Positions 31,692 to 37,600 are shown, counted from the stretch's first letter. The stretch: 41,415 nucleotides of DNA from Catajapyx aquilonaris (GCA_000934665.2 JYFJ02003474.1:1-41415); one strand, 5' to 3'. Notes: a model not told the origin generated them from the letters alone. Numbers and translations: made by a program.

Positions 31692-34600
31692 CTAAAATAA
31701 TTATACCCAAAATAAGTGTGCGCATACCATAAATTAATTTCATAATATTGCGACATGAGTACATGCCGTAATTTAAGTGTCAAATTTTGCAGTACTTACT
31801 GGTATCCTATTGAGCTGAAGTTGGTCGAGAGAAGTGGGCATATACGTGCTTGGAGAGCATCGTGAGCATGCTCTTTTGGACCCAGACATTTTGCTAGGCT
31901 CTTTTGAAGAGCATCGAACAGCCAGGCGTAGCTCTTGAGCCATTTCGGAGCACAAAGACTGCTGCAAAATAATAAGCAGGCATTATGGACACTCATCCTT
32001 ATTGCATCCTATTTTACTTTGATAAATGTTCTGTTTTATTTGAGACTAAGCTCGGATTAAGTATTTTAATTTAATTTACTGATAATTCTCCTGCCGAGTT
32101 AGCTGCGTTAATGCGACATGGCTAATGAACTTTTGGCAGGATCATGCTCGCAAAAAAAAGGTTTACGAGCAGCAAACAAAATTTGGAAAGTTTATAGCCG
32201 CATAAACTGTTAGGAAAGCATAATGCGTAATAATCCTGCTGTCATGATGCTATAGGAGATTATATACTTACATGATCGGATTTGGCGTTTTTTCTCGAGA
32301 TCCAGCAGAATTCAAAAATGGCAACCACAATGGCCAGCGCCAATCCGCAGAGCAGGACCACAAACACTCCTCCTAATTATTATTTAAAATGTTAAATCAC
32401 TATCACTCGTCATATTCGTGTACATTTTACGAATGTTACTCACCGATGTTCTCGACTCCTAACGCGCTGGCTTTTGATTCCTTTCCTTTTTCTTCTCGAT
32501 GACACACATCAGCCGCGTTCTTCCACCACTTATTGTACATGATTTGAATGGTCCCTTTTTCTTGAAGCTCTAGTATGGCCAGAGATATCTTGTCTCTCCA
32601 TGGCGAACCTGAATATTGTCATAGGTTGAACACATTTTGTAGGATGGATTATTAGAAATGTACCTTTAGGAGTGGCGATCCCGTATCCTTTGGAATCGAG
32701 AAGTCCACCGACTTGTGTCAGGTTGCAATCTCGTTGCACCACATAATCGAGCATCGTCGACTCCATCAGGAAGGCGTAGTTTCCCCTCAGGACTCTCTTC
32801 ACACCTTCCTCATATGTGGACACAAACACGCCTGGCTCTCGGCTCTCCATGTACCGCCACATCTTCTGGTACGTCTCGATCTTCGAGTCCTATACGAAAC
32901 GAGTGTCATTCCACAAGTTGTTGATCTTTTGACTGGAATAGACTCACCCTGAAGAAGGTCATGGTCGATCCACTCTCCAAGGTGCCGTACGGTATTTCGC
33001 TTTGATCCGCGAGATCCTCCGCGCCCTCTATGGGAGTGATCATCCTCTCCACGGTCAGAAAGGCTGCCAGGTTCGCCGTGTATGAAGATATTATGATCAG
33101 AGTGAAGAACCACCAGATTCCGCCAACTATCCGTGTGGAAGCTGCCTGTGATGAGAGTTACATTTTGATGCTACATTTCCAAAAGAAAACATCTTCCTGC
33201 TCATTTCTACAACATGCATTGGCGATCAAAAGAGTGAGGTTAACAGGATTGAATGTGTAGCGAACCTTAATTAGTTCGTGAGGCTATAGGTTGCTACAAG
33301 GCACATGTGTAGCTGACTGATAATAAAACTCGCAAGCAAGAGTAAAAATTGCAGGAACGAGCAACATGCAATAAAAGGCAACATGCTCACAACACTGCTC
33401 AAAGCAAAATGGATTGAGGTGAGGTTGCGAAGGGAAATGCAGGCTATTTATGTACCATAGAGTTTTTTTTATTTTTGAAAATAAGCACTCTGTTTTGAAC
33501 ATTATGGCTGAGCTTGTTGCAAATTGATTAAAAATTTTGCCGAGGAAAAATTACAAGTAACTCAAAAATATAATATAAGGTTGAATATGAAAGAGTAGAC
33601 GAGGAAGTCATTTAAAAGAGAGCATTGTTGTTTAATGTTTTTACCAGTTACTTATAAAAGGCAGCATGTGTCTAATTAGCACAATAATGCACAACATATC
33701 ATGAAAAATATTTGCAACACTTCGTTGCAACAAATGCAACAAACATGATTTTAAAATGATGCTTTAAAACTCACCGTAATTTATTACGTATATAACTGTG
33801 TTTTAATTCCGATATTTTTATATTTAGGTAATTCATATTCAAACAGTAGAAGTTGAAACATTTATTATATAAATTTTTATTGCAAGCAAATCCCTCCCAG
33901 GCCTGGTTTGGTGGGAATCAGGCGAGGAAATGTGAAAAGCGAGGCACCAGTTAAAGAACTTCATTGTAACATTCTTCATAGGGAGGTATAAGGTGCTTAT
34001 TTTAATGCCACATCTCTACGGTACAAGAAATGCCTATAGACCCTTCGGATAAGGGGGAATAAAAATCTTACAAAACCGCAGTTCCACTTGGTATAAAAAT
34101 GGTAAGCGAAAACAAAAAAAATGGCATGCTACACATGCCGATACCACAGCAGAACGTCGCTCTCATTTTGGGCAGAAGTGCTTATTTTCACTCGTAGGAC
34201 CACCAATCGGAGTTACAAATTTGGACATTTTTTGTCACATAATTTGATTTTTGTCAGGTGCAATTAGAGCAATTTTTTTATTCAATTTTCTACCGTCCAA
34301 TGATCCTTCTGATAATTCGGCCTATCAGGTCTTCAATAATAATTACTCCAGGGATTTTGCCTCACTGTACATCTCAATTACTCGGTAACTGACAGGTGGC
34401 ACACCACGAGAGTGACCCTATGGTACCTTGGGCGTGATGTTGGATCCTTGCTGGAGAAGAGTCTCCATAGTGAACCAGAAGCAGTTGGAAAGGGTGAAGT
34501 TGTTGACAGGCTTTTTGGCATGGGTCATCAGGTTAGGAGGCTCTGTCCACTCGTAGGGGGAGAACCTGGCCACCACCCAAATGGTGACGGACACTGTCAG

Positions 34601-37600
34601 GTAGGCGGCCACGATGTAGGCCCAGATCTCTGTCGCAAGGGGGGTCATGAACGAGAACAGACGACGGGGCATGCTCTGAGGGACCTAAAATGTCCATAAA
34701 AATAGACAAATAGAAAGGAAAATGACCCCCAGACACATGATCATGAGACAAGAGCGGTCTCCCCCAGTACGAGTCCTCTAAAACCTCCTTCCTCCAGCAG
34801 TCATATTGGGTTGTGTGAATCAACCTGACCTTCGGGTTGAGTCCTGAGCCCTGCCTGAGAAATGTACCAGTGATGAACCAGAAACTGTTCGAGATGGAGA
34901 ACTGGTTCTCGACTTCTTCCCTTGCCGGATGAGGGTTGTTCCACTCGTATGGGGAAAATCGGGCCATCACAAAGAGGGTGAAGGAGACCAGGACGTAGGC
35001 TGCCAGCACGTACAGCCATATCTCCACTGCCAGGGGGTTCATGAAGCTGAACAGAAGGGCCGGCTGGCTTGTAGGGGTCTGGAGGTTCAAAAGTGGACCT
35101 GGTCCAGTTTTTTTTCTTCTCTAAAACTGGACCCCGTGTAAATGGCTCATAGGCCTGATTTGACCTCAAACCAAGGCGTGACCCCTCAAATTTTGGGACA
35201 TGACAGCCTCTGGGGTAACATCTGATGCGATTGGGCGCTTTTGTAAGGGGCTGCTGCCACGTTTGGAATGTAATTCAGTTACTGGGAGCAAAAGAGGCTG
35301 CTGGAGGAGGTGCTGCCAAAGCTGGCGCCTTGTTATTCGATTGAGTGGCAAAAGTCGACACGGCCTCTCACCAGGCTCAGGGCTCAGTAGCCTGAGGCTT
35401 TTGTACATACCTATTTACTTTAGGTGCAATGAAACTGAGCGAGTTAGAACAACAGGTTAAAAATGAGTAAATGTGTCTGACCTTAAACAGGATGCTGATT
35501 CCAAGGTTCATGAAGGGTTTAGTGAAGTCAATGACGCTTTCCCTGGCATAGTTTATAGTCATGGAGGCCACTGCCAAGTCCGCTTTCTGTAATGACACAA
35601 GGGACATGCACCAATGAAATTATTAATATCCGCAAAGATTCCATCAACTTTCAGTCAACGAATCGTAAATAATTCTTCCGGATTAGTAATTTGTTGCCAT
35701 CATTATCCAGATGCCTCTCTAGTTAAGTTGAGCACCTGGATGTACCGAGCTAGTGCACGAGTAATCCCTTCATAAGAGGATAATGGAGCTAGCCTGAGGA
35801 TTCATGATTATAATATGAGGATCCTTCCAAAAGGAGCTCCAAAATATCGATTTATTTAGTCTCATAACAGCCGGCCAACAAGCATTGATTTTAATATTCC
35901 CAGACTTCATCCCCAGCTTCCTTCTAAAACCAGCTATATGAGAGCCTTGCAGCATAATTATCATGAACGATTATATTTTTGATAACAAATTCCAATTTTG
36001 ATGCAGCAACGAATAATACAACCAGTGCAAGTAAATGCAAAGTGTGTTAGAGGGAAAAGGAATTTTCACATCAGAAAGAAGAATTTCGAGGGCTGGAAAA
36101 GAAGAAGAAAAAAAAATCTCTCCGACCTTATCGATGAGCTCCTTGACAATTCCATTCCACTCTCCTGTGTCCGGGTCGACGGCCCCGTATTTGAGGTCGG
36201 GCACGAGCCGAATGTCGTAGTTGAATCCGACCAGATTGGCAATGGCCTTCAGGAGGTCGATGCAGAATCCGGTGTACCTCAGGTTCCCCGTTAGGTTGCG
36301 GCCTGGACGGACCATCACGTACGGCCTCTCCTTCAAGACGAGAAGAAAAGGAGAGAAAAAAAGAAGTTGGAGACCATCATCTCCGGATTTTTTTTCATTT
36401 TACATGCAGATAGCCAGGAATGGAAAAAGTTGCTCGAAAGGTTCTCCAAAGATCCGGGATTATCATAATCAAAATGTACGTGTGCTGACTCTTACAGGCG
36501 TATTGAATATTCAGTATCAGTAGAGGCGACTGAAGTGTCGTAGGCTGTATCCGTTTACTGACCTCCAGTGTCATGACGACTAAGGTGACGTTTGGCACGA
36601 CTCCTTCGAAGAACGCGTTTGGATCCGTGACATTGATTCCTTTGCTTGGATTCCACTCTCCAACCTTCCGGACCACTTCCTTCCTCAGTTTGAGCAGGTC
36701 CAGTTTAAAGTTGCTTCTTCTGCCTTCTTTGAACTCGATCCGACCTGTCAGACCCTGGAAGGACACCTGACAAAAGGACAAACATAAGCAACCTATATCC
36801 TACAGAAAGTCTCACAATCCTTGGTTTTAAACAAAGCCGCAAACTTGTGAGATTTTGGCATCTGAGCAGCCTTTTTCCTCGTGCAGCAAATGGTGCGATT
36901 TTTTCGAACAAAACGTGCAAATTTGCATACCTACGTAAGCAGTCTCTGAGAAGCGATAGCCATCTGGAGGGTTCTATCAAGTTCCAAGTAGTTGGCCGGT
37001 TGCCCAACACTTGTTTGCCAAGTTTGTTGGAGGTAAATCCACCCCCCTCTTCCAGAAAATTTTTCTCTTATCCCACCCACTGCGAAAAACCTCAACCTCC
37101 ACTTACTCTTCTCAGAGTTGAGATTTCCCTATTTTTTTTAGAAAACCCAGAACATGCAACAATTTTGCGAGGAAGGAGTTCCACATGTCTATGTAAAAAA
37201 AAAGGTGGAGCCATTTCAGGATTATGGAGTTGATATATAGGAGATGGAGAAAAAAAATGTAGGCTAATAAAATCTGAGGGGTTTCGAGAAAACTGCAGGG
37301 CTTCTTACGTGAGCATCAAACGTTATATCCACAGTCGTTGCGTCTCTCATTCAATGGTTATGCTACACGCAAGTGGTCTGGAAGGAACTAATGTATTTAG
37401 AAATTTCTGAATGTTAGAACGAAAAGTTTCCAACAAACACGCAACAGCATAGGAAGCATAAATGCTGTTAATTAAACACAAAATTATGACAATGACTTTA
37501 AGCAGTTCCCTTTAATATGGCAGTGCTTTTGGCGTAATCTGAGCAATTAACTGGACGAATAGACACTGTCTTCGTGTAGATGCAGTGAGTTGATAGAGTA

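Follow-up and report, generated by a model that had tools for sequence, protein, structure and literature searches.

The receptor locus and its two pore exons

The DNA examined here is a stretch of 41,415 nucleotides (nt) from Catajapyx aquilonaris (GCA_000934665.2 JYFJ02003474.1:1-41415), referred to as the window throughout. It carries on its minus strand the 3′ part of a kainate-type ionotropic glutamate receptor gene, in which two adjacent homologous exons, termed A and B, encode the same segment of the channel pore. Exon A specifies arginine and exon B glutamine at the Q/R site of the pore loop. It is this site that classically determines the Ca2+ permeability of AMPA and kainate receptors, and its essential RNA editing in vertebrates is textbook knowledge.

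In tblastn searches with four full-length relatives (P0004, P0003, P0008, P0031), collinear exon matches extended on the minus strand from ~41147 down to ~31803. Judged from these matches, roughly the last two-thirds of the receptor gene lie inside the window and its 5′ end beyond it. Single exons matched two Pfam profiles, namely Lig_chan (PF00060, cut-off 30.8 bits), with 70.5 bits for exon A, 62.9 bits for exon B and 74.9 bits for the exon encoding the membrane segment M3, and Lig_chan-Glu_bd (PF10613, cut-off 30 bits), with 85.8 and 53.6 bits for the exons of the ligand-binding segment S1. The gene thus belongs to the ionotropic glutamate receptors. The best-matching solved chains were GluK2/GluK3 (E values of 4e-25 for exon A and 2e-21 for exon B) versus GluA2 (2e-21 and 5e-18), which places the gene in the kainate subfamily by similarity ranking. 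Exon A showed a mean identity of 95–96% to 13 R exons of the Ukar type, as compared to 56–75% for the R exons of a paralogous gene, and its matches included, among those listed, proteins named CG11155. By these identities, the gene is the pancrustacean kainate-type orthologue of Drosophila CG11155/Ukar. Its features are as follows.

31800..41415, minus strand: kainate-type ionotropic glutamate receptor gene, CG11155/Ukar-like, 3′ part; the end at 31800 is approximate
35482..35586, minus strand: upstream constitutive exon, end of ligand-binding S1 (...NLGISILFK), phase 0 at both ends, Lig_chan-Glu_bd positions 78-112
35079..35481, minus strand: intron between the upstream exon and exon A, 403 nt (gtcagaca...cctccag)
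34830..35078, minus strand: exon A, R-type M1-pore module, 249 nt, 83 codons, with a pore-loop stretch of 17 residues
34854..34856, minus strand: arginine codon AGG at the Q/R site of exon A; the +4 residue is Gly (GGA, 34844..34842)
34685..34829, minus strand: intron between exons A and B, 145 nt (gtcaggtt...long pyrimidine tract...ttttag)
34427..34684, minus strand: exon B, Q-type M1-pore module, 258 nt, 86 codons, with a derived pore-loop stretch of 17 residues
34451..34453, minus strand: glutamine codon CAG at the Q/R site of exon B; the +4 residue is Asn (AAC, 34441..34439), in relatives Asp
33146..34426, minus strand: intron between exon B and the M3 exon, 1281 nt, GC content 0.36
32948..33145, minus strand: downstream constitutive exon (AASTRIVGG..., M3 and start of the ligand-binding segment S2), phase 0, Lig_chan positions 66-113

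Exons A and B are each bounded by AG and GT, and all sites of the region are of the GT-AG type. Codons are left unsplit both at the end of the upstream exon (AAG|gt at 35482) and at the start of the downstream exon (cag|GCA at 33145, opening a 12-residue stretch). All junctions are therefore in phase 0, and four splice patterns would remain in frame: A only, B only, A plus B, and neither. Retention of the intron between A and B, by comparison, would cause a frameshift and a stop inside exon B (open reading frame 34533..35120). A relaxed tblastn search of the window yielded these two copies only, and no third.

The two exon products are identical at 47 of 86 residues (55%; BLASTP E 3e-31), which is far beyond chance. 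In HMMER searches, both aligned to solved GluK2/GluK3 chains over the pre-M1 region, the membrane segment M1 and the pore loop (8f0o_A residues 552-629), and both covered Lig_chan profile positions 2-64, with the next exon resuming at 66-113. Since they occupy the same profile positions and the same GluK2 segment, A and B represent two versions of one structural module. The AGG codon of exon A and the CAG codon of exon B both align with the first Q of the GluK2 motif 'MQQGS'. Counted back from the alignment end at 629, this is residue 621 of GluK2, which we take to be the Q/R site. A preliminary description of the locus had recognized two intact, paralogous phase-0 exons 145 nt apart that encode one and the same M1-pore module with R or Q at this site, and the coordinates, splice sites, identity, codon alignment and profile positions all agree with it. 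Adjacency, homology, similar length, common phase and intact splice sites are, moreover, the anatomical hallmarks of a mutually exclusive exon pair.

Age and spread of the exon pair

A protein search with exon A returned 988 matches, with 71–88% identity among the best 120 of 988. These 120 proteins came from insects, Daphnia, Artemia, decapods, isopods and an amphipod, and two module matches lay side by side in every one of them (120/120). The first pore loop followed the pattern WFITGT[FL]LRQGSG..NPK and the second the pattern WF..G.LMQQGSDLNPK, as seen in insects, Daphnia, decapods, an isopod and an amphipod. Compared with the R exons of 13 pancrustacean orthologues, exon A was 90–100% identical in its M1 part and 89–100% identical in its pore part.

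To place both exons, we calculated a tree of 63 modules, which is rough because it rests on only 78 usable columns. A single branch (support 100/98) separated 29 R modules from 34 Q modules. Exon A fell among the Ukar-type R exons, and exon B was located inside a clade of 21 Ukar-type Q exons (support 97/93). A tandem arrangement as such could also be produced by an assembly or collapse artefact, or by a recent local duplication without function. The arrangement is all that speaks for this explanation, to which we assign a negligible probability. The copies share, however, only 55% of their protein residues, with saturated synonymous divergence (dS) between them, the R-then-Q order recurs in independent genomes and contigs, and in the tree each copy clusters with modules of its own type from other taxa. 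We regard the explanation as ruled out by the identity value, the recurring order and the tree.

The arginine was retained in all 17 R-type loci from metagenomes, encoded by AGA (8 loci), CGA (4), CGC (4) or CGT (1), and the window has AGG. Crude ratios of nonsynonymous to synonymous divergence (dN/dS) between exon A and other R exons amounted to 0.02–0.08, at saturated dS. As the residue is constant while its codons vary, the arginine is genomic and under purifying selection. As far as the codons tell, it is independent of editing, and on this point the preliminary description, which had called the R genomic rather than edited, is confirmed by four further Arg codons in the 17 loci in addition to the AGG found here.

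The same R-then-Q order is present in a paralogous gene of termites, locusts, beetles, bugs and a mayfly, whose R module is more diverged. Going by this distribution, the pair has long been part of two genes, the CG11155/Ukar orthologue of insects, branchiopods and malacostracans and the paralogous kainate gene. To judge by the taxa that share it, the R and Q modules would have been retained as neighbours from a time before these three groups split. At several genomic loci, the R pore is fused in frame to M3 (L019:2193-2270, L025:1529-1606, L036:4209-4286) or separated from it by only ~115 nt (L013:2942-3127). There is consequently no room for a Q exon at these four loci, and in their lineages the pair seems to have been reduced to an R-only gene.

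Other arrangements were encountered as well. In individual paralogue proteins of termites, beetles, a locust and bugs (P0146, P0206, P0209, P0210, P0065, P0072, P0078), a diverged R module is accompanied by a canonical-looking Q module. At locus L024, a Ukar-type Q module is fused to both flanking exons. The Q module of Hymenoptera is split into two exons, whereas exon B is single; in Hymenoptera-like loci, these are an M1 exon and a pore exon (L006:5183-5347 and 5982-6062). The annotated isoforms P0188 (Cotesia glomerata X3) and P0090 (Cephus cinctus X5) retain the R module and the second M1 but lack the second pore loop. Two identical R modules in tandem, without a Q module, occur in P0002 (Bombyx mandarina isoform X2), which may reflect a recent duplication or an annotation or assembly artefact. 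The 1819-residue protein P0232 of the centipede Strigamia maritima contains two Q-type loops 46 residues apart and no R-type loop. The R type may thus be restricted to Pancrustacea, as judged from this one centipede model.

Proposed exon choice, co-inclusion and the state of exon B

Splice forms with a single module are found in relatives. Q-only isoforms of 987–1022 residues are annotated in 16 Drosophila species (P0216-P0224, P0228-P0231, P0233-P0235), and isoform C of D. virilis is Q-only. For the paralogous gene, an R-only isoform (X7), a Q-only isoform (X6) and one with both modules (X1) are annotated in Onthophagus taurus. In contig L001, an AT-rich intron ending in ...ttag is followed by an R exon joined directly to AASTRIVGG, from where an open reading frame of 391 residues continues. 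The L001 exons are 80–89% identical at the DNA level to Daphnia-like genomic contigs, in which a Q exon and several introns are present. L001 therefore looks like a partly spliced RNA with the Q exon skipped. R-only, intron-less open reading frames of 941–961 residues occur on contigs L002, L005, L011 and L012. Since R-only genes and Q-only isoforms both exist, each module is sufficient by itself.

We consider it somewhat better than an even chance that exons A and B are alternative R and Q pore exons. On this model, the flanking exons would be spliced either to A alone or to B alone, giving a normal subunit with one pore module, and the pore chemistry would be set by exon choice instead of ADAR editing. 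The R form, encoded by exon A, is predicted from vertebrate GluA2/GluK2 to have low Ca2+ permeability and low conductance, and to lack polyamine block. C. aquilonaris would accordingly be expected to make both single-module mRNAs, and by analogy with vertebrate receptors the currents of the R and Q forms should differ.

Several observations weigh against the alternative-exon model. They concern the transcripts and proteins of relatives, the means of exclusion, and exon B itself. The nearest genomic relatives of L002, L005, L011 and L012, that is, L013, L026 and L027, offer no space for a Q exon. Of the five R-only mRNA-like contigs, four may therefore come from lineages devoid of any Q exon, and these may show only that R-only genes exist. 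In D. melanogaster, both the protein HL08030p, which is derived from complementary DNA (cDNA), and CG11155 isoform B run from ...RQGSGLNPK straight into the second module. Among 261 stored database proteins, 191 have the R module, the Q module and then M3, as opposed to 26 Q-only and 1 R-only proteins, in a set that favours double-module proteins through its retrieval scores (best 120 matches per query). An R-only isoform of a Drosophila Ukar orthologue was absent from the best 120 matches, below which it could rank. Co-inclusion is real in at least one relative, D. melanogaster, and at least in this species the exclusion is not a strict one of one exon per mRNA.

These data raise the question of whether both exons are normally co-included, yielding a subunit with a duplicated M1-pore segment and a non-canonical or regulatory role, with exon A as a cassette exon. 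Besides the fly products and the 191 double-module proteins, this explanation is consistent with the listed Drosophila isoforms, which are either R plus Q or Q-only, with the preserved reading frame, and with an intron between A and B whose 5′ site is usable and whose pyrimidine tract is the best in the region. The product would, however, contain Lig_chan positions 2-64 twice. In ionotropic glutamate receptors, M1 crosses the membrane inward, the pore loop dips into it from the cytoplasmic side, and M3 leads back out. If another M1 followed the first pore loop, M3 and S2 would hence come to lie on the wrong membrane side, and a product with two M1-pore modules is unlikely to fold into the canonical topology. 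In addition, HL08030p is truncated soon after M3 (...TMTFFRHNKL), as expected of an aberrant transcript, and R-only and Q-only forms exist, as do R-only genes. Gene predictors, moreover, commonly chain in-frame tandem exons. We judge regular co-inclusion to be improbable.

With respect to the means of exclusion, a mechanism forbidding double inclusion, be it frameshift with decay, steric hindrance or incompatible splice sites, was not apparent. The exons of 249 and 258 nt are both multiples of three, so that double inclusion would proceed without a frameshift, and the intron of 145 nt between them, with GT-AG sites like all others, is long enough to be spliced. Within 2.4 kb, 46 inverted-repeat pairs were detected, of which three share one arm at 34215-34247. 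This arm is complementary (78–87%) to 34682-34696 at the 3′ splice site of exon B, to 35186-35200 upstream of exon A, and to 35459-35476 just after the upstream exon. A docking/selector layout would be compatible with this complementarity, but the arm is rich in AT and its energies were no better than those of shuffled sequences. For the best duplexes between introns, 8 of 30 and 19 of 40 shuffles reached an equal or better energy. Orthologous introns were all too distant for comparison. Given that no usual safeguard was apparent, leaky co-inclusion is to be expected, and the resulting transcripts would be stable enough to turn up in gene models and cDNA libraries. As double inclusion keeps the frame and occurs in relatives, strict exclusion is improbable.

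The preliminary description had gone further on two related points. Its inference that one gene could yield R and Q subunits by splicing is backed by the R-only and Q-only forms in relatives and qualified by the co-inclusion in fly cDNA. Its expectation of mutual exclusivity, which was derived from topology only, is not supported in this form in view of HL08030p, CG11155 isoform B and, within the biased set, the 191 of 261 double-module proteins.

The main rival to the alternative-exon model holds that exon A is effectively constitutive and exon B is rarely used or a decaying relic of an ancestral Q exon, leaving a hard-wired R subunit. We consider this unlikely, but to a lesser degree than regular co-inclusion. 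The terminal branch of exon B in the module tree has a length of 2.3, as compared to a median of 0.11. No other Q exon in the comparison has a pore part as diverged as this one, whose identity to 14 orthologous Q exons has a mean of 61% and a maximum of 67%, as opposed to averages of 74–88% among these exons themselves. Within the loop, a near-invariant glycine of the pore helix is replaced by Glu and the Asp at the +4 position by Asn (QQGSN versus QQGSD). An exhaustive HMMER search of 1.84 billion representatives retrieved 1155 relatives, none of which exceeded 64% identity over the whole of exon B, and the ME..NIT loop was absent from the best 150 representatives. A word-index search with exon B returned a single relative. 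At the 5′ splice site of exon B (AAG|gtacca), the G that is usual at position +5 is absent. Finally, R-only genes exist elsewhere, at the loci L013, L019, L025 and L036 described above.

Several coding properties of exon B, on the other hand, speak against decay. Its frame is open over 86 codons, which occurred by chance in 64 of 20000 random sequences of intron composition. The GC content at third codon positions is 0.78 and thus similar to its coding neighbours (0.73 for exon A), unlike the introns with an overall GC content of 0.36–0.48. Both splice sites are otherwise intact, and the pyrimidine tract is strong. The M1 part has a mean identity of 68% to the 14 orthologous Q exons, within the range of 56–76% that these show among themselves. 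Crude dN/dS values against Q exons were 0.16–0.37, that is, below 0.4, again at saturated dS. We read exon B as a still-coding but fast-evolving exon.

The altered loop bears on the permeability predicted for the Q form. According to the passages of PMC6307864 on this residue, an acidic residue at Q/R+4 is linked to Ca2+ permeability and polyamine block. The preliminary description had expected a Ca2+-permeable subunit among the products of the gene; assigning this property to the exon B product is less safe than it assumed, since the +4 residue is not acidic (QQGSN). The exon B loop has also gained an N-I-T sequon (34436-34441) and has a Glu five residues before the Q/R site. The gain of Glu together with the loss of Asp might represent a relocation of charge rather than its loss.

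Extended from C. aquilonaris to its relatives, the alternative-exon model would imply that pancrustaceans set the Q/R residue of kainate receptors by exon choice, with an ancient pair in Ukar and its paralogue and with some lineages that later became R-only. For this broader proposal, we regard the chances as even.

Relation to RNA editing and to other exon pairs

In function the exon pair resembles vertebrate Q/R editing and in gene structure the AMPA receptor flip/flop exons, and it is neither of them. With ADAR editing of GluA2, GluK1 and GluK2, it shares the position in the pore loop, the two alternative residues and the expected consequences for Ca2+ permeability, polyamine block and conductance. 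In contrast to editing, the Arg is genomic (AGG here, other Arg codons in relatives), a whole module of 83 codons is concerned, differing from exon B at 39 of 86 aligned positions including M1 and the +4 position, and the switch would be a choice of splice sites instead of the deamination of one base. The roles of the Q/R site and of the acidic +4 residue are stated in the relevant passages of PMC6307864 and PMC9479739.

Like exons A and B, the flip/flop exons of GluA1-4 are tandem homologous alternative exons of an ionotropic glutamate receptor gene that alter channel behaviour. Unlike exons A and B, they encode a segment that precedes M4 and not the pore. The flip/flop exons comprise 115 nt, and double inclusion hence shifts the reading frame. 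The lengths of exons A and B, by contrast, are divisible by three, and relatives do show double inclusion. The flip/flop exons are described as mutually exclusive in the part of PMC9479739 that covers them.

Drosophila CG11155/Ukar and its annotated orthologues (NCBI, FlyBase-derived) have the same exon pair in the same order, and the R exon is 82–88% identical to exon A. The fly Q module differs by a stretch between M1 and the pore loop that is ~80 residues longer (155–159 versus 78), whereas exon B is compact with a derived pore loop. Pairs of alternative exons for pore or transmembrane segments are known from elsewhere, as exemplified by Nav exons 5A/5N, CaV1.2 exons 8/8a and the pore variants of TRPM3. 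In these cases, a transmembrane or pore segment is swapped by exon choice, tuning permeation or gating. They belong, however, to other protein families, and most of them are protected by a frameshift, which A and B are not.

The preliminary description had suggested a check of the isoform annotation of CG11155/Ukar, and both exons indeed are already part of public gene models. The arrangement is therefore implicit in the annotation of CG11155 and its orthologues and not new to databases. The point that the pair hard-codes R versus Q at the Q/R site was not found in the literature searched. This literature contained no description of R/Q pore exons in arthropod kainate receptors, with two likely sources on exclusive exons and on central nervous system glutamate receptors of Drosophila lying outside its coverage, and the choice between R and Q exons goes unmentioned in the passages on Ukar in the Ukar literature. 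The public annotation calls for caution, as most models chain both pore modules into one protein that is unlikely to be a working subunit.

If the alternative-exon model is correct, evolution would have arrived independently, through a conserved pair of exons with a hard-coded R or Q, at the switch that ADAR editing provides. The choice of module by a neuron would then decide on the passage of Ca2+ through presynaptic autoreceptors containing Ukar. Ukar acts together with KaiR1D in presynaptic homeostatic potentiation, as reported in the relevant part of 10.64898/2026.03.20.713276, and with a Q-to-R change in KaiR1D basal transmission was not rescued, as stated in a passage of 10.1101/2025.10.06.680643. 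Which pore module of Ukar the motor neurons use is thus directly testable in flies.

The rest of the window gave no informative Pfam or Rfam matches. A cluster of trinucleotide microsatellites at 11640-12362 consists of ACT x81, TGA x17, TAG x16, TAC x15 and TAG x52. It accounts for the overlapping long open reading frames on both strands of this segment, in which no Pfam domain was detected. At 2443-2707, a tandem repeat is formed by 1.9 copies of a 140-nt unit with 85% matching.

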